Positions 18,640 through 56,497 are shown, numbered from the whole stretch's first letter. The stretch: 56,737 nt of DNA, filler included, from Dugesia japonica (GCA_001938525.1; 5 parts of 5 records of this genome joined end to end with filler, not necessarily neighbours in it); one strand, 5' to 3'. Notes: generated by a model not told the origin, from the letters alone. Translations and numbers: made by a program.

Positions 18640-18749
18640 AATAATAATAATGATAATAATANNNNNNNNNNNNNNNNNNNNNNNNNNNNNNNNNNNNNNN
18701 NNNNNNNNNNNNNNNNNNNNNNNNNNNNNNNNNNNNNNNNNNNNNNNNN

Positions 18750-18810
<61 letters not shown>

Positions 18811-18820
18811 CATTATTATT
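18640..18820. repeat. (TAA)n/(TTA)n microsatellite around a gap
   Basis: Directly visible. Confidence 0.9.
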
Positions 18821-20106: not shown

Positions 20107-20189
20107 ACCTCTCTATAACGTCAAACCCCCTATAATGCCACTCAGTTCCGGTCCCGATGGGTGACGTTATAGGGAGGTTCGACTTTATA
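20107..20189. mobile_element. Small Tc1/pogo-type MITE
   Basis: Inverted repeats ACCTCTCTATAACGTCA / TGACGTTATAGGGAGGT. The right end GGTTCGACTTTA resembles ...CGACTGTA termini. Confidence 0.65.
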
Positions 20190-22900: not shown

Positions 22901-23824
22901 TGGGAAAAAATGTTTGGCAACATTTAGAATAAGTCTTTTTTATTTGAATTTATAATTGTTTTGTTCAAAAATTTTATTGTTTTTATTTATTATTGTTAAA
23001 TTTTTCTTTATTTTTATATTATTTATTTATATTTATGAATTAAATCATTCAAATTATAATAATTTATCAATATACAATGTTGTTTACTCTTCCAAACTAG
23101 AAGCGAGTCCTTTGTTAAAATTTTTATAGTTCACAACTGGTTACATGTCTGAGATTTTCATGTTGATCTTTTGAATCAGAGTTGATTCGAGTAGGGTAAA
23201 ATTAAAATTTTAAAGTTAACTATATCAAATTAATATGAAAATTACTTAAGTAAAGTATTTATAACATTAACGGGTTGTATTTCAGTGTTATCAGAACACA
23301 GTGCTCCACACTAATCTTAGATTAAATATTCTTTATAGTATTGATTATTAATCAATTATTAATTTAAATTTCGTAATTTTTGAAATTATTTTCAAAGATT
23401 TTATTTTATTGATCGAAAAGTAAAAATGCGAGGATAATTTTTTAATTAAAAATTTAATTCACTGAAACACAAATCTAGAGTTCATATTATATTAATAATA
23501 TTTCTTTAAAAGAGACACCAAATTCCATTTAATTGGCTACCGAAATCGTGTTAAATAAATGCATTTAGAATTGGAAAATAATATTTAATATCAAAATGAA
23601 ATATTTTAAAACTTTTTAAAAAATTAATCAAAATTGCAATTTGATTTGCAGTAAACTCCGTATAAAAGCAACACAATTAAGAAGAAAAACATGCTTAAAG
23701 AGAATTGTTTTCGGTCCAGTTTTATGTAATTGGAAAAGTTTACATACAAAATACTCAGTGTAAAGAGCAACTCCGCTTATATAGAACAAAAATCGCCGAT
23801 CCTACTGATTTTTCTCGTAATTAG

Positions 23825-24548
<724 letters not shown>

Positions 24549-26113: not shown

Positions 26114-26400
26114 TCATGTCCGAGGGGTTTCAGTGCTTTTCTCAATCATCAAAGGCTCGAGAGGGATCCTTTCCCTGAGATGTAAAACATCATCAACCAG
26201 TTTATTCTCTCGGTCATGGCTGGACTGGATTATTTCCGCAAAGGACTCGACCTGTTTTTTCCATACCCGCTCCTGCAAGTGGGAGGCCTCGGCTTCCTTT
26301 TTAAAGGCGATACACTTTTTCTTGTACCTAGATACATTACTATTTGCGGCGGCTATTTCTGCCTCCCATCGTCGCTTTGCAAGACGGTAGAGGTCCCAAC
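26114..26400 (-). CDS. Family 1 ORF C, coiled-coil protein
   Basis: WDLYRLAKRRWEAE...QERVWK.QVE.F...PL.PLMI shared with 10078-10421. The start is uncertain. Confidence 0.65.
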
Positions 26401-26522
26401 TAATAAAATAATACTTAGTATAACTCCGATTACTAATACTAAGTTCTAGATCACCCAAATCGTCTTGATATTTTAGAACAGGACAACTAGATAATTTTAT
26501 TATACGTCACACATATAAATCA

Positions 26523-26876
26523 CTAAAAAGGAGTGGATAAATCCGGCGCGGGTGCAGTATTTTCCGAGTCTTCGCTACCTGAGGGTTCCCTTATTCCCCA
26601 GAGTAGGTTAGAGGGAAAGGCCTGTACCGCGGGCACTGGAGTTGGAGTGGGAGGCCGATACTGAAAGGATGTTGCAATGGTGCGATTAGGGACTGCCCAG
26701 GCTTGGTATCGCTGACGCTCGCCAAAGTCTCTTATGCGCTCGACGATGGACTCTACAGGAGGCAAACTAGATCTGTCGGCCAAAATGCACGCGTCCCGAT
26801 TGTGGGGTTTGTGGTGTCGTCGGAAGATTATTCGACGAGTTCTTCTATCCACTATCCTTTCCAATATTGATTCCAT
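26523..26876 (-). CDS. Family 1 ORF B, 117-aa Arg/Pro-rich protein
   Basis: ATG 1 nt after the tttatag acceptor. Conserved with 4180-4468 (LAD..LP.VE..VERI..FGER..Y..W.VP; NLLW). Confidence 0.7.
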   Translation of the reverse strand: MESILERIVDRRTRRIIFRRHHKPHNRDACILADRSSLPPVESIVERIRDFGERQRYQAWAVPNRTIATSFQYRPPTPTPVPAVQAFPSNLLWGIREPSGSEDSENTAPAPDLSTPF

Positions 26877-27025
26877 TCTATAAATAACCGAAATTTTGTT
26901 TAAATTATAATATATAATTTCCTTTTAAATTAATTAATGGTAACAGAAATAAACAACAAATAGATTTAATCAAATCATCAGTTTATTTTAGACAATTAAC
27001 AGTAATTGGCAGATTACACTCCTGC

Positions 27026-27220
27026 TTAGAAAGGCGTACTCTTCGCATCTAGATCTACTGGAGTCACTGAGGGGAACATCTCCGCGAAACAGCAAAGATC
27101 TGTCTCATCCGGGTGTTCAATTCTTCCCTTAGTTAATAGATGGGCAATGAACTGTCTTAATCGAGCAGTTTGACGTCGTCGTTTTATCCATTGGAGAGTA
27201 CGGCGCAATTCGGGTGTCAT
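27026..27220 (-). CDS. Family 1 ORF A, 64-aa basic protein
   Basis: ATG 3 nt after the ttattcag acceptor. GC-richer than the flanks. AATAAA downstream. Confidence 0.55.
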   Translation of the reverse strand: MTPELRRTLQWIKRRRQTARLRQFIAHLLTKGRIEHPDETDLCCFAEMFPSVTPVDLDAKSTPF

Positions 27221-27760
27221 GAACTGAATAAAGACAACAAATATTAAATGATGACTCCTACAAAAAAAATTTCATTACTATTGCCGGCTTTTATTAATAG
27301 GACGACTCGTTCCATTTCCACGATACTAGTTTACTGAATAATTTTAATTTAGACTCATTGGTCAATATTAGAATCTTAATAACATTTTTAACATTCATCA
27401 TAAAGATAGTAGGGCTAAACGTAGTATTTTTTTATCTTACCAGGGATAAACGTCACCTTGAGCATGTTAATAATAATGGTAATAATATAACGGATCATAA
27501 TTTCAACGATGACACTACCCATATGGCCAATAGTAATGTTCATAACTACCACATTGAGAATGATTTTAACAGTAATCAGGACGATGATCATACTAATGAT
27601 AGTACTGTTAAAGATAGTAAAAATAATAGTTGAATTATTTCAAGTTTACTGGTACTTAAAGTAGTATTAATACTGTTAATTTCGTCAACCATAACCATAA
27701 AATTAGCACTCCCAACCATAAGGATAATATCGGTAATATTAATAGTCTTAGTATTGATAG

Positions 27761-27940
27761 TGTTGGGGTTTCACCTGAGTTGGAAAAGGTGACTGGGGAA
27801 AAACAGTCCTCAGGGGAACCCTTTCAAGAATTTAAACCCTACCGTCCCTATGGTAGGTTTTCAGTTTATTGTGGTTGACTTTTCTCTTGATGGAAAGTTC
27901 TCACCAATAAACCTTCTGTTCGGGTTCTATATTTTCCCAA
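27761..27940 (+). other. Family 1 structured terminal module (third copy of the module)
   Basis: Homologous to 9319-9505 and to the reverse complement of 5131-5315. Begins TGTTGGGG. Confidence 0.85.
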
Positions 27941-28090
27941 TAATATTTAAACTATTTTAATTAACATTTAATATTACGAAAAGAATTTAANNNNNNNNNN
28001 NNNNNNNNNNNNNNNNNNNNNNNNNNNNNNNNNNTTAATTAATTAANNNNNNNNNNNNNNNNNNNNNNNNNNNNNNNNNNNNNNNNNNNN

Positions 28091-28640
28091 TCGTATTTAT
28101 TGGTTTTCCATTTGTGATTATATGATGTACTGCCGATATCCCAGTTGCCTGCCATGAATATTCCTTAATGAATCATTATAACTTTCTCCAAATTGTCATT
28201 TAACTTGTTATTCAATATTTTTATTGCTCTCTGTACTCTCTCATCATCCGTTGTATTGCGTCCATACTTTGCTTCTATATTACAAATATACATTTCATTA
28301 TCATCACATTTAGTCTCTCTCAGAAGTTGGAATCCAAACTTTTTCTGTAATTCTATTCCTCCCATTAGATCTGGATGTATCTGTTTCACCACGCCTTTAT
28401 TCTTGAATTCCACTTCTACCTTTATCGCACCTACGATTTCGAGTGGACTATTATTGGCACATCCTAAATTATCTTCACCTTTTAAAATATTAACTTTTCT
28501 CAATCTGTNNNNNNNNNNNNNNNNNNNNNNNNNNNNNNNNNNNNNNNNNNNNNNNNNNNNNNNNNNNNNNNNNNNNNNNNNNNNNNNNNNNNNNNNNNNT
28601 TGTTCTTTCTTAAATAGGCCATTAACTTTTCTGACAGCCT
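28091..28640 (-). mobile_element. Gypsy protease/RT-linker remnant
   Basis: 'CANNSPLEIVGAIKVEV...PDLMGGIELQKKFG' (retropepsin C-terminal half), then 'WDIG' before RT. Confidence 0.65.
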
Positions 28641-29649
28641 AGTTTATTAAAAACATTTGATATTTTTTTTAATTACGAAAATGGGTGTCTTCAATAATTT
28701 TTTATAATACTTTCTATTGTATCTAAAACTTTCTATTGTATCTAAAACTTCTATTCTGATTCAAAAACAATTATTTTTATAACGAATCGATATAATTTCC
28801 TAAAAGGTTTTCATATCGTAATAATATCGTAAAGTATTTAATTGCACATTAATTACTACAAAGCGTTATTCTTTTATATTACTCTATTATTTTCGAATAA
28901 ATGATTTTTAAAGTAAGTAAAAATTGAATACATTTCTTAATTTCTAAATTTAGAATAATAAAAAGAATGAATTAAAAAAATGAATGAAAAAGGAAAAATC
29001 TTTAGTTGTTGAATAATTTTAATTTACAAATTATAACAAATGAATTTTTTATTTTGCACTTTTGATGTAGACACAGTATTTAGATTAATAGTTAATTAAA
29101 ATTTGTTATAATAGTTTGTCTATATTGTACTGATTACAGTCTTATAATAACAATTGAATTACATTTAATATTTATAATAATGAAATGATTCATTTTCTTT
29201 ATTTTTTCATATCTCACCAGTCTAGTCCTGGGAACTTGTCGACAAATATTAATTTTTCAAATCATAATTTCATATCATAAAATAATAGTAATATAATAAT
29301 AATANNNNNNNNNNNNNNNNNNNNNNNNNNNNNNNNNNNNNNNNNNNNNNNNNNNNNNNNNNNNNNNNNNNNNNNNNNNNNNNNNNNNNNNNNNNNNNNN
29401 NNNNNTAATTGACAATAATTGACCGTTTTCAATTTTTATTGGAGTTTGTTAATATCTGCAATTAATTGTAAATTAAGTAATATAGTTACTCCATATCCTA
29501 AAAACCCGATTTCTTAAAAATACTTATTACAGTAATAAAACAAAGACAATTAACAAAGTTTATCGCGAATGTGGTACACTGACAGTTAATCCTTTCTGCC
29601 TTATAATCTCCACCACTATGCGTGATTTGCTTTCAAAAAGTAAAGTCAA

Positions 29650-30670: not shown

Positions 30671-31199
30671 TCTATACCATAGAAACCAGATTTATTTATT
30701 TAACAACCCAAAATTTAATAAAAGAGTTTATAATTCTTATTTCTTTAGCTGAAATAATATTGTTTAGAGTAAGTAATATAATTAAAGTTATAAAGCTTAA
30801 ATGGGAACACATTTTCATTTTTTTACTCTAAACCAAACCAAAATTTGGCCCATTTGAATAAAATTTTAAAAAATTATTTTAAAAATTTTCATGAACAGTT
30901 GGCTACCTAAGTATTTGAGACCATAGCTGGGTAGGAAAATGGGGGCACATTAAGTGAATTTCACTGTAATTAAGTTTGATTATTAGTATAATATTAATAA
31001 TATAAATATGTATTCTGACTTGATATTTACGCAAACTTTTATAAAATTTTCTTTAATATTGATTTGAACAATTATTTATTATTTCAATTATAATTTAAAA
31101 TGAATAAACTACAATTTATTAGTAGTTAGAACACAAGATTCTTCCATAAAAATACTTTTTTTTGTCGTTCATCTTTCTTTTTTTTCATATTTCTTTTTC

Positions 31200-31324
31200 T
31201 GTAACGTCGTCGCTAGTTAGAACACAAGATTCCTCAATAAATGTTTATTTATTAAAATACAAACAATAATTACAAAACTGATAAAAATTAAACAAAGTTT
31301 ATATTTCAATTTATAACTGATATA
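31200..31324 (-). repeat. Putative 3' LTR (~125 bp)
   Basis: Similar to 35287-35412. On the minus strand it is preceded by purine-rich AAAAGAGAG. Confidence 0.65.
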
Positions 31325-34300
31325 GAACTGCTCTCTTTTAATTTTGAGTTTCAATTTTCTTCAGCCATTCCAATCTTCTAGTTTTGAGTTTCCCTGCAAA
31401 GTCAATAATCACATGGTGTGGGCTTATGAATTTAATTATTTTATATGGACCTTCATTTCTTAAACCATCTTTCTTCAGCTTATTTGGATGACCTATACTA
31501 ATACTTCCTCCCCTTCATTAAATTGTCTATACGTTCGTCTGTGAAATTCACATTTGCTTAACTTTTTAGCCTCTTCATGTAAGTTTTGTCATCTGCTATT
31601 GCTTTCATTTTTTATGATCTGAAATTTCTTGTTGTAGTAACACAAGTAAAACTATCTTTCTTCCAAAGATGATTTCGAAAGGAGATAATCCAGATGATTT
31701 CTGTTTAGTCGCATTCATAGATAATTGTATTCTTGGTAGTAATTTGTCCCAGCTTGCTTCCAAACATCCATTTTTTATCGTTGTTACCATCATATCTCTC
31801 AAAGTTCTGATGCTTCCTTCAGCTAAGCCATTTAATTGATGCTGATATGGTGATGCGAACTCTTGTTTTATCTCAAATTTATTTGCATTAATTTTGCTTC
31901 AAAAATCTTTCATTTATCAGTTAAAAATGACTTCGGTTTCCCAAAACGATATATCTACTGCTCTTTTATCGCATCAACTACTGACTTTTCATCCTGTTTA
32001 TTCAATGCTACAAAAGAAACTAACTTACATAATCTGTCAACCGTGACGAAAACATATTTTTTCTTAGTTTTTGCTTCGGGAAAATGAACAATATCCATGA
32101 CAACCTGTTCTAAAGGTACATACTTTGTTCTTAGGATCAGATACTCTTTCGTTTTACCAGTGTATGTCTTTCTCATATTGCATATCATACATTTTTTAAT
32201 TGGTGTTCTACAATCCGTTTTATATTTGGCCAAAAATAACTTAGATTTAAATATTCTGTCAGATTTTGACCTCCTGCGTGACATAATAAGTTTGGGTATC
32301 GATTGCCCTGCAAGTACTATTTTCTTTTTGTTATTTTCATTGGTAATTAACAGCTCATCACTCATCTCAAATTTTTCCATTTTTGAAAATTTTTACTTTT
32401 CGTCACCATAGCTCAGCTATCTATCACCTTTTCCTTTTTCTGTATATTCAATAATTTCTCTTGTAACAAGATCATTTCTTTGTATTTCTTTGATACGACA
32501 TTTAACAAAATCTGTTTATCTAATACATTGATTCTTTTAACCCGAGCTCGTTCTCCCTTGGCATCTTGATTTGACTTCTAAAATTGTGAACACCAGCTTT
32601 CGCCTATTCTTGAATGTCCGCCAGCATACCTTTGTGCTGCTCCTTTTCTGAATTCTAGATCGAAATTAAATTCTGCTAAATTTGTTATCCATGTTTGGAA
32701 CTGCGAACTAATAGGTTTACTCGTCTTCGTCATAAATGCCAAAGGTTCATGATCTGTTCTTGCTGTAATTTTTTTCCGTTTAAATAATGTTTGAAATACA
32801 CCATAAACTTGTGCAATGCCAACAACTCCATGCGATTTACTCAATATCCTTTTTCATGATCATTTAAAGTGCGAGAACCACAAGCTATTACTTGTTCTAA
32901 TCCATAATTTGTAACTTGGCTTAGAACTCCTCCAATGCCTCAAAACTAGCATTTGTATCTAATATCATTTCATTTTTATAATTTGGAAAAGCGAAGATAG
33001 GAGCACTACATAACTTAATCTTTAACATTTAAAAACTAATTTCACATTCCTTTGTCCATTCGATGTTTTTTTCATGGCTCGCAGTGGCTGCATATAAATG
33101 TGCTACAATGAGAGCGTAGTCTTTTATAAACCGCCTGTAATAATTGGTTAGACCAAGAAATGCCCGTATTTGTTTGGTGCATTTTGGTGTCTACGCTTTT
33201 CAAATTTTCCTGATAGTATTGTCATTTATCTCTACACCTTTAGCACTAATTGTATGATCCAAGAATCGAAATTTCTCAGAATGTGTATTCAACGCATTTA
33301 TCCGGATTTATCTTTCAATCTGTTTATTTGAATAAAGAAAAAACTTTACCAACCCGCTTATCATGCTCTTGTTGAGTTCGACCATATATCAAAAAATCAT
33401 CCAAGTATACTGGTACTCCTTTATACAACATTCCGTCGAATAATTGATGCATCAAACTTTGGAAAGTTGCTGTTGCAGTGCGATCAAAACCAAACTGCCC
33501 CATTTTCGTACTAAAAACTGTCTTCAACTTCGATTCTTCACTTAATTTAATTTGATTGTATGCTTGTCCCAAATCGAGCAACGAAAAAAAGTGATACCTC
33601 AAGCGTGTCTAAAAGTAGTTGAATATCAGTCACCTGAAAGGAGTTTTTATCTGAAATTGAATTTAATTTCTGAAAATCCAGACACATTCTTATTGCTCCG
33701 CCTTTATTCAGTACAATTACCACTGGTGAATTCAACGGACTTCTGAAACTCTTGATAATATTTGCTTTTCTAAGATTTCTCAATAACACATCACTTTTGC
33801 TTTCCAAATGCATTGGCTGTCTTCTAGGATTTAACATTATTGATCCTCTTTTTGTTTCAATGTGATGTAGCATTATTGTTGTAAATCCAAGATCAAATTT
33901 CGATGTCATAAATATCTCTACGTGTTCTTCTATCAGTTTTATAATTTCTTGATTGATATTCTTTTAAATATTCATAACCTTTTTTACTCTTTTTGAATTC
34001 TCAACTTGCTCAACAACAACATCCTTTGAATCAATAAAATCAATTTCGGTCATCTTCATTCCAAATATTCTCATCATATCAATGCCCCCAATAAATTCGG
34101 GACGAATATTTTTGACAATTACTACTTCTTTTTCTCTTCATTTCCCATACCAATGTATATGTAATTTAGTTATACCAATACATCTTTTTCCTTTCTCTGA
34201 AAATGTTTCTGATAATACAATCTGCTACTGCGATAACTCTAGTGATTTAATTCTTCTCCAAACGTCTGCACTTATTACTGACATTGATGCTCCCGAATTC

Positions 34301-35286
34301 CATAATATTTCAACGTCAAATCCATTACGCTGCATTATGCTTCATTCTCTCCGATCGTTCTTCTGAAATACCTTCTTTTTATCAAATATAATTCTTGAAT
34401 CTCTGGTTTTACAATCGGTTATTGCAGCCTCACTGATGAAGTAGTTTGCCAATCTTTTTTATATCGTCATCGTCTGTAGGGACATCATGTATATAATCTA
34501 TCGATTTCCTTGTACAGGACCAATTATCATCTTCATCTGCAACACACAAAACACACCGAAAAATCCTTTACTCGAAATGATAAACAATCACGAAAACTAT
34601 GACCTTCCTTTCCACAAATTAAGTATTTTCCTTTCAATGGCCAATTCATCCTTCTATGACTAGTTTCTCCACATGCTCCTGCCTTTATGATTTCGTTTCG
34701 CGACGTTATCTTACCTTTAGCTTTACAATATAGTTTATTTGCTAGATGTTTCAATGAATACTGCGGGAAACTATTGTACTGACCTTGTCTTTGTATCGGC
34801 TTACTTTATTTGAAATATGGATCATCTTGAGTTGGTCGGTCTCTAATATTTGTGTCCTTTTGAACACTTATCTTCAGGTGATTGTTTCCAAATTTGGATT
34901 GATATATATTCTTTTTTAATGATTCAGCATAACTCTCTTTCATCATATTTCCAGAGTATTAGGTTATCCAATTTAGTAGCCAATTCCCTTCGTTGAATAC
35001 CTGTTAACTATGGTTGGATGACAAATGATTCCTTCAACTTTTCGCTCCGTATGCCATTAGTTATAAGCAATGTAGCTATTTCATCTAATGACTTTTTACT
35101 TGAAAATACTTNNTTGAAAATACTTTATATAATAATTTCATAAAATAAATTAAAAATATCGATATTTAATTTTATGAAATATTTTATTTTACATGTTTTA
35201 AAAATAAGTTTTAATATTATAAATATAAAAATTAAAGAAAAATCTCTCAGATATTTAAATCTATGAATGATTCTTACAGTGGTCAC

Positions 35287-35412
35287 TGTAACGTGGTCTC
35301 TAGTTAGAACACAAGATTCCCCCATAAATTTTTATTTATTAAAATTCAAATAATAATTACAAAAACTGATAATATTTAAATAAAGTTTAAATATCAATTT
35401 ATAACTGATACA
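35287..35412 (-). repeat. Putative 5' LTR (~126 bp)
   Basis: TG...CA ends, similar to 31200-31324. No clear primer-binding site seen. Confidence 0.55.
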
Positions 35413-35752
35413 TAACTTTAGTTATTAAATTATTACAATACATATATTAATATCAATTTCTTTAATCCCGTCTATTTGTTGAAATTTTGTTGTTTATATC
35501 TTAATGATCTTTTGTGATATGAATTCTAATTTATGAAGTCTCTTCAATAATTGTTAAAATAAAGTTAATTAATTTATCGTAAATTGGATTATAGATTNNN
35601 NNNNNNNNNNNNNNNNNNNNNNNNNNNNNNNNNNNNNNNNNNNNNNNNNNNNNNNNNNNNNNNNNNNNNNNTTTTTTTTATAAAAATCACTAAAATTATG
35701 TAGTTATCAAATAATAACACAAATAGGACTATATTTTTAAATATAATCTAGT

Positions 35753-35890
35753 TTTCATTAAATTAAAAGCTTTGATCAAAATGTTGTTTTTTCATATTTT
35801 TTTTAATTTTTGGTAATATAACAACTAAAACACAAAGATGAAAAAATATGGAAAAAACAACATTTGAGTGAAGCTTTTAATTTAATGAAA
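35753..35890. repeat. Palindromic repeat; its right arm belongs to a dispersed family also at ~20598-20680 and ~46546-46620
   Basis: ttcattaaattaaaagctt...aagcttttaatttaatgaa. All three sites share 'gtccaaca.ttattctc.caata'. Confidence 0.65.
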
Positions 35891-36687
35891 TTTTAAATTT
35901 AAGTCCAACAATTATTCTCACAATAGTTATAATTATAATCATAAAATTATTAAACAATCAACTATGATAATAACAATCAAGATCGTATTTCAAATTATAT
36001 TAAATCAATAAAGAAGACAATAATGAAATCGATTATGAGAACACTAAGAGACGATAAAAAGACAGCAAAGATTGAGAATCAAACAAAGAAAAAACAGCCA
36101 AAGATAAAAATTCAATCAAACTGGAAAATGGATAATGCTATAAAAAATCTATAAATGTAATTAAATGAAACTTGTGTCATTTCAACAAAGTCTTCCATTT
36201 TTAATGTATTACTCTAGACTTCAAAAGAGTTGACAAACAAAATGTTACAGTCATTTCCAATGTTTTTTTTGATAATTTACTNNNNNNNNNNNNNNNNNNN
36301 NNNNNNNNNNNNNNNNNNNNNNNNNNNNNNNNNNNNNNNNNNNNNNNNNNNNNNNNNNNNNNNNNNNNNNNNNNNNNNNNNNNNNNNNNNNNNNNNNNNN
36401 NNNNNNNNNNNNNNNNNNNNNNNNNTAATAATAAGCAAAGAAAGAAAGTTGTCATAAAAAAGTAAAAAGAAAAAACAAGAATTACGCCATTAAAGATCGT
36501 TGCTTACACTTGTAAATAAAAATAACAAAAAATATGAGAAAAATAATATATAAACAAAATGGTCTATTTATAGCTGCATTACTACTAATCACATTAGTAG
36601 CATTTAGACTAACAAATTTTGTAAAAACAATGGGTAATTTAGAATCATTATCAAGAATTTAAATCAAATTTATCCCAAGATGTCGTA

Positions 36688-41045: not shown

Positions 41046-42380
41046 TAGGGTCATAATATTATAAAAGATATTGTCAAAAACAAATATATGATTTCTATTA
41101 CAAATTTTAATATTACGAGATATTATGATAATAAGAGTGTGATTTTAGTAATTTTTGCTGCTGTTTATATAGCAGTTTGTTTGCTTTGTTAGTTCCTGTT
41201 CATTGTAATCGTTTCCATTTTATACTGGTTTATTACCTCGTAGATTTTTTGTAGTTTCAGTTTATACGGGTTAATAAACTTGGTTTCTTATCGTCTCGCA
41301 ATCTTTATTCGGTTTCTTTTTCTTACCTAATTTTATTAAATCGTTCCTTTATTTCCATCTAATTTTAGATTATCTAATTTTTCTCCATCTTGTTTCTTAT
41401 TCACTAATTCATTTCTTTCGCTTAAATCTTTGCTATTTTATTTAATTCGTGACTTTTCTGTTATTTTCTATTTGCGGTTTTTTTATTTCGTTTAATTCTT
41501 TAATTTTGATAAATTCCAGCCCAACACAAATAATGTAAATAAACAGGGTGATTGAATTAATGGTCTCTTATTTTTCAAATTTAATGTATGACATCACTAA
41601 AAGCTTACAAATAGTCAATATTTCTAACGAGAAATAAATTTTCTAATAATAATTTAATTGTCTCTTGTCTGAAATATTTTCAATTAACGGATTACTCCAA
41701 ATGACATAAGGCATATTATTTTAAAATAGTATGCTTAACTTTTTTGATAGTCATTATTTGGATTTATTCTGTAATTTAAATTACTTTAGGTTAGTAATCA
41801 GAGGACGTTCTACAAAACCAATATTCAACAAGAATAAAATAAATACTTTTAATATTAAACATTTATTTATTAAATACATCGATATAACTGTCCAATGTAA
41901 CTACAAACTCATCGTTAAAATGGTTTAAGAACATATTTCCATAAATATCGTGCTTTGAAATCTGCTAAGCTTTTACAATGGAAGAAAATCCCACAGCCTT
42001 GAAAGAATTTAGAATTTTATAAGTATTGGATATATCCAAAGAAAATTGAACCAAGTACTTTTGGATTTCTAATTTTCGTATACTGAATTTCTGGTGAATT
42101 GTTCCAATTGATCTTCTGAAAAACATCTTTCATTACTTGAATATTCCAAGATGTCAATTCACTTGGAATTACAACTAACCTTATATTTATTGATTTCATT
42201 TCGTTGTTGAAAGAGTTCATCGTAAGTTTAAGTAAATTTCTCCAACTAACTTGCACTCGTATAAAATAATGGTTCGAATTTTCTTCTTTTCCATCTTCAT
42301 TTAAACGATCGATTCAATACATTTCTACCAATGTACAAGTTTATTTATACTTTTTGANNNNNNNNNNNNNNNNNNNNNNA

Positions 42381-43015
42381 CAAGGAACTCATCGAAAGTT
42401 GTTTTGGCATTAGTCCGGTTTTTAAAGAACCTTTCCTGTGTGAAGTTAAATTGGTGCAGAGTTCTTTGTGCAATGTGTTGGCGGATATTGTTGTGCAACA
42501 TAATTGAACCCTTTTAGTTGGTTATTTGTTACAATTTCCCATGCATTTCTTCGATCTGTTTGCAGTATTTCTTTATGATAATAGTTTCGTCCTAATTTAG
42601 AAAACGGTGATGTATCACGCCGTCATTAGACCACTAAACAATCCTCATATTCTTTTTTGGCTTTTGTAAATGTTTCTGAGCTGAGAAGACTAAGAAATTT
42701 GAAAAGTTTGAGTGCCGAGGTTTTACCATATCTACCATACAGCCACATCATCTGACTACGATTTTCTCAAATCTATGCAGTACTTTTTGAATGGTCGTCA
42801 ATGTGAATCATTTGATGAATTCGAAGAGGCGTGGCAACAGATCTTTCACTCATAGAAGCCAGATTTCTACAGATTCGGAAACTTGCAGACCGATTGCAGA
42901 AAGTAGTGAATAATGATTGACTGTACTTTGATTAGTTATTGTTGTTAAATTCAATCAAATGTTCTTTTTGTATTTTTTTCGAAGCTGTAACATAATTTTT
43001 GGGACAACCTACTAA
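42381..43015 (+). mobile_element. Possible Tc1/mariner remnant
   Basis: Degenerate coding-like stretch ending in TIR-like 'AATTTTGGGACAACCTACTA'. Confidence 0.35.
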
Positions 43016-43864
43016 TTCTGATATATATCTTAAATACTTGTTATCAAAAATTTAAGTAAACTTTAATATTAATCTCATATATTTGCTATCAAGTAATTTT
43101 TAACTAACATAAAATCACATTTAAATAAATAAAGTCTTTATTCCAAAACTTGAATTAAATTTATTTCAATTTTAAAATTCATGAAAAATTTACTAAGATG
43201 ATACTTTATATTTGACCAAAATTCAAAGGCTTAATTACATCAATTAAAGGAACAATAATTAAACCATTGTAAGAATATTGTATTCATTTGTGAAACAAAA
43301 ATCTTAATAAGCATTGAGAAGTAATAACCAAAAAAAATCATAATAACGTATATCGTGGGTTCGTTAGAGAATTGGGTGGAGCGGAACACTTCAACTTCTC
43401 TTTTCGTAACTTGATGTCTGCGACAACTCTCACTCATCACCCTCTCTATATACTTCATTCTTACTCTCGAGACAGGTGTGATAAATCTGGCTTGTCTTGT
43501 TCATGATGCGTTACTTGTAGTCTGTTATCGTTCTCATCGCTATCTGTCATCATGCTATCTCGTGCTAGACATTTATTTGATATCTTTTGTTTCATTACTT
43601 CATGTTTTGTGATATCGTATTTGCTCATTTCAAGTCATGATTTCATGCTCTTTGGCGTTAATTCATCGGTCTTTATGTTAATCTCAGTAACAAAGTTATT
43701 TCAACATTCTTTATGTAGTACAGGAGTACCTTAAATGTCTTATCTTAGTAATTTATATTACTTCTTGATTAACTTAATTTATTCCCTTAAAATTTTCTGT
43801 TATTTACCTGTATTCTACAACTTATTTTCTTTTAATTTACTTTATTTTATTTATTTGTAAGAGG

Positions 43865-46320
43865 AGTTTGATGGCCCCTAGAGAGTCCGCCAAGTTGTGT
43901 GGCGACAGATGGGGTGTATAATTTGTTTACAACACACTAATTAAAGATATAAAAAGTAGTAATCAAAAATAAATAAAACTAATTTTAACAAATTTTATTT
44001 AACCAAAAATGAAATATAAATTTACTTTTTCTCTTTTAACTCATACAGATTTGAAACTTTCTTTGGAGCTGTATTTAATTCAGAAATAATTTGTAACTGA
44101 AGCTTTTTTTTGATTTCGAGGGAATTTATAATTTTAGCATTGTCTGATTCGGAAGGGATTTATAATTGAAGCTTTATTGAGTTCGTTTTCGATTGATTTA
44201 GGTTTCTTTTCTATTTTTCGTATTCCACTTTTTTCATTATGAAATTCATTACTCAATATTACGAGTATTTGTGAGGCTTAAGTACATTAAACTGGNNNNN
44301 NNNNNNTTTCTATGTCCTTTGTCTCAAAATTTACTTACTCTTAATTTAGTTTTTGATTTAATTTAATGTGAATTTTGATTTTGATTTAGTTTTTAATTCG
44401 AGAAATTATCTAGGCCCCAAGGGAGTCTTTAAACAAAAAATATGCACTGGTAGGGACTCTTGGGGTGTAAGTTATGTAGAACTTGTATTAAGTTTAATTA
44501 AAAGTAATAAAATTTAAATTATGACAATTTAAAATAATAAATATCAATTTAACCAAAAAACAAAAAGTAAACTTTTATAACAATAATATTCTAAAGCAAA
44601 AAATACCAAATAGTGATTGTTGTCAATATTGTGATTATTTTTCAAAATTAAAATGTTATTATTTCTTTTCGAGCTTTTCTTTTTTTTTGGTGACTACCAA
44701 AATCTTTAATGTCCATTCTGACGAAATTTCTTTTCAATGTTTTTCTTTATTTGGTGACTGCCAAAATTTTCTGATTTTCAAATTTTTCTTTTTTTTGCAA
44801 TTTACACTTTATTTCGGCGGTTGCCAAGTTTTTAATTTGTATTTTTTGTCAATACTTATTATTGACCATAATTTTTAATATTAATATTTTTAATATTATT
44901 TTCATTATATATATATATATATATATACATACACTTTCTTTTAAAATAAAAATCAAATCAGTTACATTATACTCAACTTTTACTGCAATTATTACTAAAA
45001 TTTACTAAATTTATTATCCAATCTTTTACTGAAAGCGTTTACCACAATTTTTATTAACTTTACTAAAATATTGTTTACACAATTTTGCTTACCGTTTTAT
45101 AAAAAAATTTCCGAATACTGTTAATTAATATTTAAAATAATACCAATATGTTGGGTTTCTTGGCTTTTTATATTAGTGATTGCTATGACTTATGATCTTT
45201 TCCTTATCGTTTCTTGGTCGGCCACTCTACTTCAAACTTTGTTAATCTTGGTCTAGGGTATGCCCTAAAACCACATAACTTGTGCACACCCATGTGCCTT
45301 TCCTTTTTCCAGCGGGTCTTTGTGGTTATGGATTTGGATCTATCTCTGGCTACATTATAAACTGAAGGTACTGTCTTTTGCAATCTTATGAAACAATTTT
45401 AGAAATAACAAACTGATGGATAATTCGAACATATTTTATTAAATCAATCCAATACAGTAACATAAGGACATATATTCAATCCGGATCAAAATTTTTTCAT
45501 TGTCTATCATGACATCAAGTTCATTTCTGAGCATAGTATGCCGAGGCTCTTCCTAGAAAATGGGTCGAATAGAGATGATTTTGGGAGTTGCTGTTAGTGG
45601 TTCATCTGTTTCGGTGAAACTCGAATACAAATATTTAAAAATCAAAATAATTTACCCGACTTAACATTTAAACCCTAAGGAGGGTAAGCATAATCAGTTT
45701 CGGACTTGTCATTGCATTTTTCAAAATCATCTTCTAGATAATCAAACATCGCGTTTCTTCCAAAAATGTTATTTCTAATTATATTCTCGATAATCAAATA
45801 TCGTAGCTCTTCAGAAAGAATTATTTCTCCAATTCACTAAGGGATGTGAGGTTCGGTTGGCCAGTGATTGTTTAAATTAAATCATAAAAATGTTGTTGAG
45901 TGAATATGCATAACAAAAAATTAGAATTACTGTTTAATTTAAATGACAATCCGTATATTCACAAGAAAAACAGTGACGTAGTTTTTAAAACTTTTAATAG
46001 CAATAATAATTCAATAGTGTTATAATGATGCTGAATTTCCCTCTAATAATAATTTTAATTCTTAACAATGATGACTATATCAATTATTGTTTAAAGGTAT
46101 TGTTTTTCTTTTTTGTCCGTCTGCCTCAAAATTCTACCACTGAATTTTAGAAAATTCTAGACTGTAATGGACTTGGCAGTGGTGTTTTTTCTGCCTCGTG
46201 TACTTTTCTCTTTTTCGGGAACTCTTCGTGACCGTTTCCATGGCATTTAAGAACGTCCGGTTGTCAGGATAATCATGGACTGAATCGGGCTGGGTCACTG
46301 GCGCATGTCTATTTTTTTGA
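43865..46320 (-). mobile_element. Unclassified multi-ORF element, family 2, copy 1 (two terminal modules plus decayed short ORFs)
   Basis: Hairpin modules at 43873-43918 and 44413-44469 match 50721-50770. Shared GGCGGTTGCCAA/GTCAATA-TATTGAC block (44816-44870 vs 51066-51130). The ORF at ~45205-45390 is homologous to ~52632-52790. Confidence 0.65.
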
Positions 46321-46441
46321 AAATTTTAAAATGAGCCTGATGACTCATCATAACATTAATATCTTTTATAATTAATAATATTAATTAATTAAATTTTTTA
46401 CAATAATAGTAATAATAAATAATAATAATATCAATAATAAT

Positions 46442-46513: not shown

Positions 46514-47306
46514 ATTATGAAAACCAAAAAAAGAATTTTGATCGAATCTTTTAATTTAATGAAAACAATCAATAGTTACGTCCAACAATTATTCTCGCAA
46601 TAATTGCAATTGTAAAATAATACTTTAATGATGATAATACCAATAATAATAACAATAATATTACTATTGTTGAGGTCATGGGTNATATGGCTAGTAAAAA
46701 ATATATCACTCATAACCCGCAAACTGGGATTTGATGTACTCGTCCTTCGAGTACGTTGATGGCAGCCCCGTTGACTCTTACACAACGTTAAGAGTGCTTG
46801 AGCGCACCATCTGCATGTTATTCGGGTTCATTTTTCATCGACGATAGAAATCGTTTCAGAGAAAAACCAATAATTTACGAACATGATATTTTTAAAGAAT
46901 TAAAAATCGTTACTTTAATACATAATTGAAAACAATAATCACCTGTCACCTCATAAAGAGCAAATCTCAAAACCGATAACTGCCTAACTAAATCATTCCT
47001 TCTTTTCTTCTCCATTTTTAACATACACCTGAGCATTATCTTGTGGATCATTCTGACATCCTCATTTGAGAAGCATTCATGAAGTTTTCATTTGAAAATA
47101 AAAGCCGGAATAATCTGTTTTTCATTACACGTTTCCAAAAAACATATGTCTGATTCTTTCCTTCTGACAGAACAAAAAATTTTCATATATCTCTTAAAAA
47201 CAGGTCACGCAAGTGAATAATTACGATTCAAAAACTCAAAAAATATTGGTAATTTTTAAATTTTTTTTATATAAAGGTTGTATCTCAATCTCAAAGGTTA
47301 TAGATA

Positions 47307-48379: not shown

Positions 48380-49347
48380 CCTCTGTTTGAAGACCACGCT
48401 CAGAAAAAATATAATGGATGGAAAACTGATTAGACTTTTCTGAAATACCGAGAATAGACTGGTATGTCAACTAATGGAAGGATCAGAATAGCAATTCAAA
48501 TTCAGTTGATCAATAATTGAAAACGAATTTTGAAATGATGAGCAATAGTAATTTAAGTTTAGTCGATAAAACAATAATTTGTCACTTTTCTTGTCTGGTT
48601 TATTTAGTTGCTGTTGACAAGTAATTGCTCGTGAAATTGGGCAATTATCCGTTCCAATTTTTTCTTCCTTGCAATACTTCCACTTGGTCGATTGAAATTG
48701 GACAATTATCTATTCCAATTTTTGTTCTTAGTTAAACGAAATTCAGAACGACGATTATATGAACGGCAATCTTCTATCTGTAATTATAGATGGTTCAACG
48801 AGAAATTGAACGGCAATTAGTGAAGTAATTTTCTGTTTTAATTGCACACCTCGTTAAAACATGGTAGTTGTATTCTGCTATTCTATAATTCTACTACTCT
48901 TTGATGTCGTTGCCGTTTATTACCATTAAATGTATCATCTATTGTTATAAAAATATTTCTAATTCTAAGCTTACTGGACCGTCAAGTTTTTTTTAGGTGT
49001 GACAAAAAACTTCAGAAAAATAATATTTATTTACTTCATTACATACTCTAGGATCTGAGTACAAGATTTAGCTTTTGAAGATCAATGATAACAGCGACTT
49101 TAGTGCTACACTATGACGATTAGCATTATGTAATCCTTCCCATCGGGATGGTACGAAAAATTATTGCATGACTCTCTGATACTACTTTACAATCGAATAA
49201 TGCATTCATATCTGATGGCAAATCATGAACAACAGACCTACCAACCTTAATTTCTTCATTTAAAAAAATTCTACTTTCATGGAAATGTTGTGAATTTGGT
49301 TGATGGGTGAGCACTAAGACTACTGGTCCATTAATTATGGATGCCAT
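48380..49347 (-). pseudogene. SLMAP: SLMAP-like FHA-domain gene, decayed or highly diverged
   Basis: 'PNSQHFHESRIFLNEEIKVGRSV...NALFDCKVVSESHAII' closely parallels the SLMAP FHA (PNSHPFQER...IKIGRSV...NATFDCKVLSRNHAL). Downstream, duplicated 'EQKLE/EEKLE' coiled-coil pieces with stops. Confidence 0.65.
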
Positions 49348-49399
49348 TGAATTATGATGTTGAATTTTTTAACTATTATTCAAATGAAACTTTAAAGTC

Positions 49400-50480
49400 T
49401 AAAAAAGTCATTCTAAATATTTAAAAATTAGTTTTCTCATGGTAAAAGCAGCATAGTTATTGATTTCCTTCTCTCTTCTGGAATTTATTTCAACACCACT
49501 ACTCAAGAAGTTAATTGGAAATTCACCACTTATCACCTGCAGACGATTATTACTAATCTATTCTATTGTGAATTTAATGCATTTAGATCATTGGACTTTA
49601 TCGATTGGAATTTTAAAATGCTCGAATTATTTGATTTTATCACATATTCAACCGGTATTTATCTTTTGTACTTTTTGTAAATGAAGAGATGTGGCTTTTT
49701 GATATTTTGATAAATGAATTTAAAAGTTGCTACATAATTTTGGGTGAGTTGGCTTCCCTTACCCTTAACAAGTGTGGAAAAGAAGCCTGTTCCTAGGGTT
49801 TTCCATGTTATGTGATATTGTTCTAGTGAAATCTTATGTTTGTTGAAAGTGTTTGAAGACTTCACTTTCCTTTTGTTTGAGGTGTTCTTTAATTCTGGTT
49901 CGGATTGTCTCATTTTAAGAACTCTATTTTTCCTTCTATCTCCTTTCACCGTTGCTGTGAAACTCATAATATTATATGAATCTTCATTATTTCTCACTTT
50001 ATCTAAAAGTTTCTTTGATTTCTATAACTTTTTGTATCTTACGTAAAATTATTTCTTCTACACTTTTATTTCCGACACATTGTACCAACAACCTGGCTGT
50101 CAATTTCTTCTTTGTAAATTCCTTATTTGTAAAAAGCTTTTCCACCAAGTTGTCTACTTTCCTGATATAATTATTAATATCCTCGTCTCTACTCATTTAA
50201 TATATCATTTCTTTCGTGTCTCGGATGGCATCTCTTTCTCTACTACAAGCCTGTCTTAATCATTCTTGGAAACCTATTTTTCCCAATGTTTCCACGTATT
50301 TAACCAATGATCAATAAGGCAGGTAACCAGTCTTTCCTGATCGCTTTTATTTGAAATCCCTTTCACCTCGAAGTACTCCTCACACTTACGGATGAATTTT
50401 TTTACATCATCCTACTTACCAAATACTCGAGCATAAGTCGGTCTGTTATTGAGTCTGTGTTTATCCACCATGTTAGGGAG
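49400..50480 (-). mobile_element. Gypsy-like gag remnant
   Basis: 'DDVKKFIRKCEEYFEVKGI' and 'EDINNYIRKVDNLVEKL' resemble retrotransposon gag. Frameshifted. Confidence 0.5.
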
Positions 50481-50720
50481 CGAATTTACATACCCATTAT
50501 TAAAAAAGATTTTAAAAAGATTAATAAATACAAGCTACAATCGATAATTGGTTAAAATAATAATTTAACAAACAATAATACTATTAGGATAAAATATGCG
50601 CGACAAGCTGGTTGGGTTTTCTGTTTGTTAGCTTAATCAAACCCCTTATCTTATATTTACTTAGTCGCTAATTTATATTATTTTGTTGTTAATATCATTT
50701 ATTTATGTATTCAGAAGTAT

Positions 50721-53403
50721 TGTTAGATCCCAAAAGAGTCTGCCAAGTTGTGTGGCAACAGGAGGGGTATATACGTATGTAGGGTGCAAAAATTAAATTC
50801 GTATTTGTGTAGAAATAATTTAGGTATAATAGAAATAACAATAAAACAATAACGAAATTAAAAGTTAATTAACGAACGTTTACTTATCAACCAAAATAAT
50901 TATATAATGTAAGTTTACTATTTTTTTGTCTTTGAATGAGAATTTGAGTTATCACCGTTTTCTGTTATTTTTGACGATTGCCAGGACTTGTAGTTTAATT
51001 TTTTATTCCAATTTAAATCAATGGTCTTTTGTGGGCAAACAATACTTTTTAATTTTTCCTTTTTTTGGCGGTTGCCAACTTTTTAATTTATCATTTTAAA
51101 TTCTTTTTTGTGTCAATATTTTTATTGACCTCATTTTTCTAGAATTAATTTTTATTATAGTATATTAGTATACATATGTGTATGTATATATACAAACATA
51201 ATATGAGTACACAGATACATATAATAATTTTTAAAAATATAAATAAAAGTTCATAACAAATACAATTGAAAAAGTACAAAATATTACGTTTAAAACTGAA
51301 AAAAGCAATACCAACTGATGAAGTCTTGAATAAATAAAATGAACTGGCACTGAATTAATTCCAACGAAATATTTGTTTGATAATTGTTTTTTAAAAAACT
51401 TTCAATCTTTTGAAATATTTAAACAATAGAATTTTAAACATAAAATTAACACTTAATTTAAAATAAAGTTCCTAAAATTTAATTCAATAATAGTGTTTCT
51501 CAAAGTGAATAATAACGAATGATGCGTTATTTAATAATAGAGAATGATGTGTAGTCGAATATTACCACAAAAAATTTATGATTATATTTTTTAATGGTAC
51601 AGCAGTTGACCCTTTAAAGGGTCAAGTGAAGCCAAATTATTAAAATTACATTATTATTTAAATATTTAGAAATATTTAAATAAACAAATAGTATTGCATT
51701 GTTTAATTTTCAACAGAATATTATCTGTTTAGAAAATATAGAATTTTTTTAAGAGATCTATAATGAAGAATAGATGCATAATTTACTCCATTGATGAAGA
51801 CATAGAATGTAATGTAGATATACCAGATCCAACTGATAATTTCTTTGTTACGGACTGTGAAAAAATGAGTAGCTCATCAATTACAATTGTGAGTATGTTT
51901 TGAAAAGCGAGTTGAAATTTTTGTGTTTGGAAATCATTTTCTTAAAATCTTTTGTTAAAAATTGAAAGCTAGAAATTAAAGTAATTTAACTAGAGCTCTT
52001 CGAATCTTTTCTTTAAATGAAGGACTTTTTTATTTTTAAATCATGAATTAAATTTACATCAGCAATATGTCTATCTCTTAAATCTTTCGATTTATAAACA
52101 ATATCGTGTTATAATGTTGCAGCATCAACTTTATTTGTTAGGTCTTCTTTTTTATTTTATTATTATTTTCATCTAATTTTGCATTTGGTCCAGTATAATT
52201 ATGTCTAAATTAATGTCTTTCTCCAGTATATTTTTCAAAAGCAAATGGTTTTAATAAGAATGAAGTAACTTTAGAAGATTAAATATCTCCGCCAGTTTTC
52301 ACCCATGGAAATTTATTATGATTTAAATTATTATTATTTGTTGGTTTATTTGATTGTTTTATAATTATTGTTCCAAAAGTAGAATTAAGATTTTTAAATC
52401 ACTCATTTTCGAATGAAAAATTAATTTATTTACAGAAATTTCGCGTCTCCTCTAACGTTTTATATTATGCCTATTTTTCCTCAATAACTGAACAAATTCT
52501 ATTTAAATAATTTGCAAATATTTATTTATGAGAATTTAATCTTTCTGTTGGGTTTTTAGGTTTTTTTATGTTAAATATTTTGGTTTAACTTTCACTATAT
52601 TCTACTCGCTTTTACAATTTAATTAATAAAATCATAATTCAGGGGCATACCTAAAAACCACATGTATTTATAGTACCTCTGCACTATGCCTCTCTCTTTT
52701 CTGGGTCCAGCGCAACTTTTCGGTATCACGTCTTACTCTCGATTGATGGTAATGGACAACCATTCCTTCCACGCTCAGTATTTGATCTTCACAAATTATA
52801 TGATTAAAACTAGTCATACATAACCATTACGAAAATTTATTGGAAACTTTTTAACACCGATAACTATTTATTATACATACGACAATAAGCATCCAAATCC
52901 ACCGTGGTGCTGACCTCTGCTGGTTCCTCAGGGGAGTTCCTGTACTGCAGCTATAGTGTGCGTAAATTATTGAATACTACAGCCTCTCGATCGGCGTTAA
53001 TTTTGATTGAACCTGTTGACCTGTTGAAGGACCAGCTCATTTTCCTTAAGCTGCTGATACTTGGCGTCCCTCTTGATCATCTGACCCTTCAGTCGGAGGA
53101 CCTGATTTCGAAGCTCTCTTCGATCCTATTTCCATCTCTGTTGTGCGTTCACCAACTCCTTTTTGGATGTCATCTCTTCGTTGGCTTGAGTCACTAAATA
53201 ATTCAAAATAAATAATTATTGAAACGGTATTAATTGAATTGAGAATAATTTTTATTCATTGATGTGATAAATATCCGTTTCTTCGGCCTACCGCCTATCT
53301 GGTCTTCGTCCCCACTCCTCAGATACGAACCAGTGAAGATGGCGTGTCACAACTACCATCTTTTCTCGTTCCCATCGGTACAGAGTTCTCGTAAGATTTT
53401 CCT
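50721..53403 (-). mobile_element. Unclassified multi-ORF element, family 2, copy 2
   Basis: Terminal module TGTTAGATCCC... at 50721. Minus-strand short ORFs 53288-53401, ~52870-53193 (tttag|TG start, coiled coil) and ~52632-52790, with AATAAA between them. Confidence 0.6.
51990..52320 (-). pseudogene. Parvovirus/adintovirus-type phospholipase A2 (PLA2X) remnant
   Basis: Manual translation: 'KYTGERH*FRHNYTGPNAKLD...TNKVDAATL*HDIVYKSKDLRDRHIADVNLI'. It has the YxGP Ca-loop, the HD catalytic dyad and the R..AD motif, with two stops and one frameshift. Absent from the ORF track. Confidence 0.8.
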
Positions 53404-53589
53404 ACAAACAGAATTTTCATTTCGTAAATAAAGTAGATTTTAATTGTGGATAATTAAGCGCTCATAATAAATGAAACGGAAAATTCCATTATTTATAATA
53501 AATAAAACTGGTTGTACAGACCCTTCTAATATAATATTATATTATAGTATATTATTTTTATTATATAATTCTTCGTCGCCTTTTTATTT

Positions 53590-53850
53590 GCTATACTAAA
53601 ATTTGGCAGTGCAAAGAAATGTAAACTCTTTATCCAAACCTCTGGCAGAAAATGAAATTGCTCATAATGGAATTTCCCACAGCTTACCTCGTCGAGTGTG
53701 GATTCAGTTCAGTAACTAATCTCCTCACCAATCAAAGAAGCAATCTCGATTATGCTAAGAGGCGTGATTTGAGACTGCTTCTCATCCACCTGAAACCAGA
53801 CACTAAGTCTTTAGCATCAATAAAACCAAGCACATGAGTCTCATTGACTC
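53590..53850 (+). mobile_element. hAT (Charlie/ZBED8-like) transposase C-terminal remnant
   Basis: 'FPTAYLVECGFSSVTNLLTNQRSNLD...DLRLLL..LKPD' dimerisation domain. Confidence 0.85.
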
Positions 53851-54539
53851 TGAAATCTCTAAAACTGTTGTATCAGTCATATAGCATTCTGTTTTGTTAG
53901 TAAACAGTATTTGGATTGGATTTCAATAGATGTTAATTACCACCAATATTTTGCTCTGTATTGATACTTTGTTTCTCTGCCACCATCCTTGTGCTTTAAT
54001 ATGTTCATCTATTACCATTTTATATTAATCCGAGTTAAATATAAATTGCAACTGTAATCATAAAACATCAATTAAAATCGTAGAACAAGTTTTTGGCCTG
54101 TGGCCTAACAGTTTCTTCCACCATTCTTAGAGCAAGGACCAGGGAAGATGTTCGTTAATTTCAGTCATCTTCACTCGTCCCGGCTCTTATGGAGCTCTTA
54201 CAAGAATTCCCTATTATTATCATTAGTTTATTGGTTGATGGTCGATAGATGGTAAACGTTTCCAAATTTTAAACAACTTTTCAAAGCGAAATCATATACC
54301 ACGAAATTTTGATGAATTTCTGAACAACAGATTCAATCAGTAGTTAACTCAAATCAAACTTTATGATGTAATGATGAGACTAAAATTATTTATTCAAGAT
54401 TAAGTTCCTTTAAATTAAAAAAATTTATTTTATTTAATCAAATAAAAAACAGTATTACTTTCAATTTATTTACTAATCATAAATTTTAGGATGATTACAA
54501 AATCTCACAAAGAAAATTTTAAAAATAAATGAAGCCAAA

Positions 54540-55631: not shown

Positions 55632-56497
55632 GTAAGTAATTACTGTTTTGCTTAAATGACTTCATTTATTTTCACTATAAAGATTATGGATTTTCCAATT
55701 TTGTAAGTGCCTAGACCGGTGGTTTATTTTCAAGATAATACTGATAAAGTTTCTAATTGCTATAACATTGATAATGACGAATATTACTACATTACTAAAA
55801 TTTTAACTTATTATATTAAATATTTAGGTCGCAGAGACCCTTTTAACATTTTATTATAATATTGTAATGTATTTATACTATACATTTTAGTTACTGATAA
55901 ACTTTCTGAAAAGTCCATTATATTCAACAAAATTTTATTTATGAAATTTCAAATCTTAAGAAACTGTTTTTTAAAAGCTGAATACTTAAACAACGTTTTG
56001 AAATATTTTTAAAAAATTCTTGAAATCTTTTTTTGAATTTTCTTCTTCAAACTTTAAATTGCAATTTTCAATTTTTTATCCTTATCAAATTTACCTAACT
56101 TAATAAAAGCATTCAATACATTCGACCTATTTATTTCATCAAGATTACTTGATTACTCTATTCAATACAGGCATAAAACCAATGATCACTGCAAACATAA
56201 TACACCTTATAATCTAAGTCAAACATACTTAATAAACTAAAAACATTCAAAACTCTAAATAAACCAAATATAATACACTCATAAAACTAATATTGTATCC
56301 ACTAAACTAATCACCATACTTAATTAATTTAATCTGTTTACTTCATCGAATACAATTAATTATATCCAATCTATATGTTTATTTCATTTTAACCAACTGA
56401 ATTCATAAATTAATTAAATCAATTAGATTCTATACGAAATACATTGAACCTTTATGAACTCAAAAAATGTAGAGTTATATAAAAATATGAAAGAAAT

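Follow-up and report, generated by a model that had tools for sequence, protein, structure and literature searches.

The stretch from 50.6 to 53.4 kb of the analysed Dugesia japonica DNA (56,737 nt at full length, filler included, and referred to below as the window) is a real, repeated and decayed cassette of small open reading frames (ORFs), laid out like the cassettes of another family in the same window; the two are called family 2 and family 1, respectively. In our judgement the chance is about even that it derives from a Ty3/gypsy-type LTR retroelement, as an old and decayed example of a modular cassette for accessory small ORFs that occurs in many copies. The proposal of the first-pass annotation that the window holds another repeated family, in which short ORF islands of the minus strand alternate with spacers bearing poly(A) signals, was supported by a second copy in the window and by more copies in assembly contigs.

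The window DNA is AT-rich (GC 0.17–0.41 per kb) and contains a Srw-type GPCR gene, a coproporphyrinogen oxidase exon and a filamin exon, with many decayed gypsy fragments around these genes, the minus-strand ones filling the window. One decayed gypsy element (31199–35417, minus strand) was nearly complete, with two LTRs of ca. 130 bp (89% identity) and remnants of RT and RNase H. Additionally, an acidic Asn-rich ORF with no Pfam match was found duplicated on the plus strand (10843–11675 and 15296–16158, 245 and 256 codons), the two ORFs being 84% identical over 528 nt and 4.45 kb apart, and a third small dispersed repeat was identified at 20570–20683, 35844–35977 and 46516–46656 (72–80% identity), one of its copies just past the second family-2 copy. 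Decayed pieces at 53570–53900 (plus strand) and 42300–42900 (minus strand) resembled by eye a hAT transposase C-terminus and a mariner transposase, respectively, the first giving no Pfam match. The gaps at 10728, 19574, 28035 and 40068 share the same TTAATTAATTAA linker between N runs, which is an assembly artefact.

Table 1. Positions of the cassette features in the window, counted from its first nucleotide.
Feature	Position	Strand	Description
Island A′	53252–53401	-	short decayed ORF directly after acceptor-like TTTGTAG (53403–53402); one in-frame stop
Island A′ ending	AATAAA 53256–53251	-
Spacer A′–C′	53194–53251	-	ends in acceptor-like TTTAG (53195–53194); GC 0.15 over 53200–53251
Island C′	52867–53193	-	decayed gene, ca. 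105 codons, coiled-coil-like composition
Spacer C′–B′	52780–52866	-	GC 0.24; AATAAA at 52872 and 52841
Island B′	52630–52779	-	LPSIES and purine tract; candidate coding island; shared in part with 45200–45400
Candidate family-1-like end region	52546–52662	-	AACCCAACA at 52554–52546, again at 45157–45149
Middle segment	51270–52479		AT-rich; absent from second copy; very high-copy repeat pieces and 20-nt palindrome 51606–51625
Module M, optional, ca. 680 bp	50590–51269		hairpin 50727–50768, adjoining TATA-like TATATA, GGCGGTTGCCAA motif 51067–51078, AACCCAACC at 50618–50610
Gag-like ORF start, decayed, Ty3/gypsy	50274–50480	-	preceded by LTR-end/primer-site-like junction CCCTAACA|TGGTGG, by eye
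Second family-2 copy, collinear	43758–46350	-	two hairpins (43869, 44409), three GGYGRYTRCCAA, end motif 45149, B-like island
Family-1 reference copy	25609–27945	-	order block, X, A, B, C, D
Family-1 copy	9319–10440	-	C, D, block
Family-1 copy	4205–5315	+	ORFs B, D, then end block

The family-2 copy comprises three GC-rich minus-strand islands at 52630–53401 (GC 0.43–0.45), divided by AT-rich spacers (GC 0.15–0.24) that contain AATAAA, and acceptor-like AG sites precede the first two islands (Table 1). All motifs quoted in the first-pass annotation were present, i.e. TGTTAGATCCCAAAAGAG from 50721 and, on the minus strand, EEMTSKKELVNAQQRWK (53179–53129), LPSIES (52752–52735) and NLTRTLYRW (53398–53372), as were the quoted family-1 peptides. 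Its description of short minus-strand ORFs between AATAAA/acceptor spacers was accurate for the layout but not for intact ORFs, as all three islands are interrupted by stops or a frame change; in island C′ the breaks are in-frame stops at 53128–53126 and 52953–52951 and a frame change near 53005. On the minus strand AATAAA occurs at 53256, 52872, 52841 and 52526. Because its chance rate per random 50-nt window is 15% (25% if AT-rich), its presence after each of the three islands is a modest but real signal, and in both families AATAAA follows every ORF end, with co-directional short GC-rich ORFs and AT-rich spacers common to both.

Codon-position GC values were 0.56/0.38/0.42 for island A′ (GC 0.45 overall) and 0.54/0.23/0.60 for island C′, the latter coding-like, and from its composition the middle island C′ looks like a decayed coiled-coil gene. 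Island B′ might be a cis-acting sequence. Spliced-leader trans-splicing may supply the start codon; by eye, the reading phases after the acceptor-like sites were mixed across the ORFs. At five of these sites (9960, 26005, 4715, 10429 and 53194), which precede ORFs D, C and C′, a TG comes next and always in one phase, as though a shared leader were joined there (by eye); the other ORFs differ in phase.

Past the last island, AACCCAACA was located on the ORF strand at a distance of ca. 85–100 nt in both family-2 copies (52546 and 45149). This motif, defined post hoc, had three matches in the window, all within family 2, against 0.64 expected. The surrounding region contains an inverted repeat (52546–52560 versus 52649–52662), and its minus-strand fold over 52546–52662 scored z −3.05, the counterpart in the second copy being no better than shuffles (z −0.69). 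Against an end at this motif, 22 contigs match beyond AACCCAACA at 52546, on to 52481, and then diverge. Position 52546 is a better candidate than 50721 for an end of the family-1 kind, and lies where the architecture predicts it.

The end of the element had been placed at 50721, next to a hairpin thought to adjoin the ORFs, and neither proposal survived. Similarity to the second copy begins at 50678 by blastn and at ca. 50618 by a softer alignment, i.e. ca. 45–100 nt past 50721, and the TGTTAG start at 50721 is not kept in that copy. One contig matches both sides of 50721 (joint 50660 to 50735), and at least seven contig joints link 50567–50589 to 51271–51444, skipping the whole hairpin module. 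Thus, 50721 is not the element end, and the hairpin at 50727 is internal, in an optional module, 1.85 kb from the ORFs, with high-copy, unrelated-looking repeats in between, compared with ca. 65–95 nt from ORF D to the end block in family 1. The hairpin did not exceed shuffles in stability (z 0.21 and −0.41), and was found again at 43869 and 44409, with the pairs kept in the three copies and both-side changes in 2 of the 12 pairs. Parts of module M are common to 43758–43920 and 44792–44933, and its arrangement here is not an assembly artefact, since near-identical contigs bridge both of its edges (50032–50624 and 50817–51335). Module M could be an independent insertion into another repeat.

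The 12-mer GGYGRYTRCCAA, with three copies in the second family-2 copy (44689–44827) and one at 51067–51078 when none was expected, is a possible protein-binding site. The palindrome at 51606–51625 is perfect, and two short hairpins of GGGTC...GACCC type, related to each other, were observed at 53510–53530, in a high-copy segment, and at 55828–55842.

In alignment to the second family-2 copy, the hairpin scored z 13.3 and module segment 51046–51198 z 17.2, with none of 300 shuffles reaching either score. The match of the B island was weak, as its core was equalled by 5 of 1410 controls and a wider piece by 42 of 606. Islands A′ and C′ did not align with this copy, since control segments scored as high in 589 of 622 and 71 of 534 cases, respectively, and its further GC islands could not be aligned with either of the two. 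The two copies agree in the order and strand of module, end motif and B-like island. In the second copy gag does not follow, and the left flank is not alignable to 50473–50617.

In family 1, ORF C shows 57 third- versus 13 second-position changes over 89 codons, and ORF D 43 versus 12 over 66 codons. Because the changes concentrate at third codon positions, both are real genes, which evolve as genes under selection do. The end block of family 1 is ca. 190 nt long and structured, begins with TGTTGGGG, and stops sharply in CCCCAACA at the same base in all three copies, against three different, unrelated flanks. It is present on both sides of the cassette, with no primer site after the block at 27761. 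Region X (27300–27760, minus strand), which adjoins the block, contains hydrophobic, membrane-like stretches in several broken frames, and is a candidate small membrane ORF of the cassette. A tandem unit in which X always follows the block was rejected, as the flank 8760–9318 was not alignable to X (295 of 300 shuffles scored as high).

The first-pass annotation had placed both families in one old superfamily, from which they diverged while ORFs A, B and C were shuffled in order but stayed homologous, as did the termini (50721); in this full form we consider that view unlikely. For ORF C, hand-joined C and C′ are collinear over ca. 88 residues, with p 0.0055 for one C copy and 0.056 for the other, and their summed score was reached by 12–13 of 3000 shuffles (p ca. 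0.004). The claimed echo of ORF C at 53193 was thus borderline when joined by hand, but it faded in an unbiased frameshift-aware scan, where 52, 12, 7 and 12 of 200 shuffles scored at least as high at four penalty settings (p 0.03–0.26), and under strict penalties it fell outside the top six peaks in the window. For ORF A, of which NLTRTLYRW had been taken as an echo, the similarity of island A′ gave p 0.58, with 36–119 of 200 shuffles as high in the frameshift-aware scan, and for ORF B, of which LPSIES had been taken as an echo, the best p was 0.06 over 12 frame tests, with 62–190 of 200 shuffles as high; both are within chance. No homologue of ORF D was detected in family 2 by the same scan (82–182 of 200 shuffles as high). 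The shuffled gene order depends on ORF B homology, and is therefore unsupported.

Profile methods gave the same picture. Family-1 HMMs of B, C and D, and phmmer with A, had no match on the family-2 islands, and the hhalign comparison of C with C′ (X at the breaks) was not significant (E=0.15, probability 0.4%). The covariance models of the termini did not cross-match in either direction: the family-1 model had no match at 50722, 43869 or 44409 among 27 matches to E 10, and the family-2 model none on the family-1 blocks among 16 matches. None of the nine block-to-block DNA comparisons was significant. These profiles were built on 1–3 sequences (A and B on 1–2), with correspondingly low power, and the family-2 copy is decayed; deep homology is for this reason unproven rather than excluded.

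Shared short motifs argue for a relationship: LP.[IV]E[SA] occurs three times in the six frames of the window, twice in ORF B copies and once at 52752, and exact CCC-N4-GAGT has four matches, all in hairpins of these families, against 0.75 expected, but both motifs were picked after the sequences had been seen. The end motif has the same orientation, and the spacer layout is common to both families, but position 50721 is internal. Weighing these comparisons, we place a common origin of family 1 and family 2 slightly below an even chance.

Coverage of 49000–54200 was compared at 82% likeness in 4 of 24 runs, using about a quarter of each raw run. Near-identical contigs of the large contig run had a depth of 8–12. 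Summed contig depth was 30–46 over C′, 5,600–8,000 over B′ and 10,000–29,000 in the middle segment at 51784–52305; these depths cannot be read as copy numbers, but their range of about 1000-fold marks a repeat whose modules are very unevenly represented. Up to 34 contigs had related letters over island B′. A contig of a presumed RNA run spans 52868–53270 with 44 other letters and 27 gaps, and C′ consequently has at least one diverged relative. Raw RNA reads over 52828–53349 had a depth of at most 0.72, and 92–97% of the placed raw reads ran on in unlike sequence, which in a comparison with no positive control says nothing on expression.

The unevenness of this coverage is what a nested pile would give, i.e. 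islands, hairpin module, middle repeat and gag originating from different elements, and the copy at 43.8–46.4 kb being an old local duplication. Such a pile would also explain the skipping of the module in other copies, the unalignable A′ and C′ islands, and the weak DNA similarity in the B region. We regard it as rather improbable, since neither the order nor the strand of module, end motif and B-like island differs between the copies, the three islands are alike in strand, spacing and poly(A) layout, and contig joints connect 52850 to 53036 and, in several cases among those listed, ca. 52566 to 52640.

The presumed link of the cassette to an LTR retroelement comes from its neighbour. Some 2.2 kb downstream of B′, a gag-like start at 50472 shares the strand of the islands, and the best 10 named Atlas matches of this ORF all belonged to the Retrotrans_gag/Ty3_capsid family or clan (top score 0.90). 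Pfam and PDB searches with it gave no match, and no pol was observed behind the gag-like start within the window. Contig depth was 201 in bin 50392–50565 and 34 in the adjacent gag bin, which together with the module-skipping joints indicates that the repeat spans both sides of module M. The window is full of minus-strand gypsy fragments, and the adjacency and orientation of gag may therefore be due to nesting.

Behind this gag-like start, the region 49659–50021 (minus strand, core 49770–49905) had a summed contig depth of 97,500 and received the most raw RNA reads of any part of the compared stretch. It lies within a 120-aa open frame with no convincing Pfam match; depending on the frame, it resembles by eye either the start of a kinase glycine loop or a decayed zinc knuckle. 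A single-copy open frame at 49126–49368 (minus strand) resembles by eye the start of an FHA domain, with no Pfam match; 49174–49347 had zero raw RNA reads, yet is covered by a contig of the presumed RNA run.

Several features point to an accessory cassette of a Ty3/gypsy-type LTR element: the collinear second copy, related contigs in an independent run, the CA|TGG junction before gag, AATAAA after each ORF end, and the third-position bias in family-1 ORFs. Ends of the TG...CA type were also counted in its favour (CCCCAACA in family 1, AACCCAACA after the last island in family 2), with CA ends at 50471, 52546 and the family-1 blocks, and purine tracts were seen by eye in B′ and before the family-1 block. 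Against this reading, three or four internal AATAAA signals would burden the genomic RNA. A second LTR for the 50.6–53.4 kb copy was not found in the window, and no convincing target-site duplication of 4–6 bp was seen at seven candidate ends, the copies being decayed and several of them running into gaps.

In such an element, the cassette would be a long, deletion-prone LTR or leader region with two or three small accessory genes on the gag strand. Each small gene, with an acceptor-like site before it and its own poly(A) signal after it, would give a single short mRNA from one transcription unit, whereas read-through would produce the full RNA, to be copied and inserted by the reverse transcriptase and integrase of an autonomous gypsy partner. 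The hairpin at 50727 would be an internal cis-element of the optional module, and family 1 the same kind of cassette with a better preserved end block, the two families having no alignable sequence. We infer the gag link, the use of poly(A) and splice sites, retrotransposition, and the function of the proteins as small coiled-coil adaptors or regulators.

Protein searches did not place the ORFs. Alignment searches confined to proteins of near length, with fused forms outside the scope, confirmed none of the 5 candidates for ORF C, and those for ORF B none of 47 of near length; one repetitive 25-residue match to ORF C among 1.84 billion representatives was judged spurious. The exact protein look-up found none of four, and for ORF C the Atlas gave no more than weak coiled-coil/bZIP-like leads. 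No cassette ORF was above the curated cut-off or below E 0.001 in Pfam and PHROGs, and in collection scans ORF C was confirmed in 0 of 71 and ORF D in 0 of 515 candidate stretches. Predicted folds had pLDDT values of 63 (ORF A) and 35 (ORF B), and fold searches with ORF A returned nothing specific, the best Z of 6.4 being in the range of common helical arrangements. At gathering score no Rfam family was detected, nor any tRNA. The hairpin pattern had no match in metagenome contigs, nor the family-1 block pattern in viral contigs.

In the gene arrays of DNA viruses, short ORFs typically have one poly(A) signal each, and the stretch might accordingly be a fragment of an integrated DNA virus or Polinton-like element, with the small genes each having their own poly(A) site and the hairpins and GGYGRYTRCCAA serving as origin or protein-binding sites. 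The family-1 block that flanks the cassette on either side, as it would if the unit were circular or tandemly arranged, and the four unexpected occurrences of GGYGRYTRCCAA would agree with this. Nevertheless, such an origin is very unlikely: polymerase, Rep, ATPase, integrase and capsid were unmatched in the ORFs scanned (fragments only), the viral contigs scanned gave no relative, inverted termini were not seen, and two family-1 copies stop at the same base against unrelated flanks.

The end motif AACCC(C)AAC, which is one change away from the complement of TTAGGG repeats, was counted in favour of a Penelope-like (Terminon-like) element that lacks an endonuclease, has all its accessory ORFs in one direction and stops at a fixed 3′ terminus of quasi-telomeric kind. 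The Terminons of bdelloid rotifers have co-directional coiled-coil accessory ORFs, a defined structured 3′ end and tandem arrays (PMC6431247), and are resembled here by the coiled-coil and hydrophobic ORFs that run in one direction, the fixed 3′ end and the head-to-tail-like arrangement at 27761. Such an origin is nevertheless highly improbable, as the hammerhead ribozyme that defines Terminon ends (PMC6431247) was not found at gathering score (the sole trace, 14 bits versus a cut-off of 75, was a flanking stem with no core, absent at the 27761 copy and the 50721 region), and no Penelope reverse transcriptase was seen beside the cassettes in the ORFs scanned.

Among known systems, the closest layout is that of the MDG1/412 group of Ty3/gypsy elements. 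In these, short ORFs of 60–130 aa precede gag in its own orientation and are separated by a poly(A) site that is used, and one sORF has been linked to cell-to-cell spread of the element (10.1101/2025.03.14.642691). These insect elements have two unspliced ORFs (sORF1 and sORF2), whereas the present cassettes comprise three to five islands, all of them accompanied by AATAAA and an acceptor-like site, their gag link is presumed, and the family-2 copy has no transmembrane sORF; the likeness is one of layout. The giant Burro gypsy elements of planarians share the AT-rich animal host, accessory ORFs, and a total length implying LTRs of a few kb, but their accessory functions can be recognised as domains, most of which lie within a ca. 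4,900-aa polyprotein (PMC6431247). That giant gag-env-pol polyprotein includes BIR, BCL2 and other domains, in contrast to the cassette ORFs, which have no domain match. The Retand elements of plants likewise belong to gypsy, have a long variable region that contains additional ORFs, and include non-autonomous forms, but these ORFs are described as antisense, between pol and the 3′ LTR, and mostly with TRP28 (PMC11963269). No description of either family was found in the literature searched, and the supplements of the original Burro paper or curated repeat libraries could name them.

Accessory small ORFs of LTR elements are poorly known, and ORFs B and C of family 1 had no real relative in the protein searches run, though C and D evolve in a gene-like manner. 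The 50.6–53.4 kb locus is one broken copy and contributes layout evidence only. We tentatively envisage an old superfamily of retroelement-borne orphan small-gene cassettes, in which a coiled-coil ORF C and an AACCC(C)AACA end would persist across at least two deeply diverged families, the remaining ORF modules being acquired, lost or moved to other positions. Alternative acceptors and poly(A) sites would give each module an mRNA to itself, as in a transcription unit of a DNA virus. If the homology is true, the conserved residues of ORF C would be directly testable, and many RNA runs exist for the organism. The presence of this layout in a second family suggests that such an arrangement is in itself a strategy that recurs.
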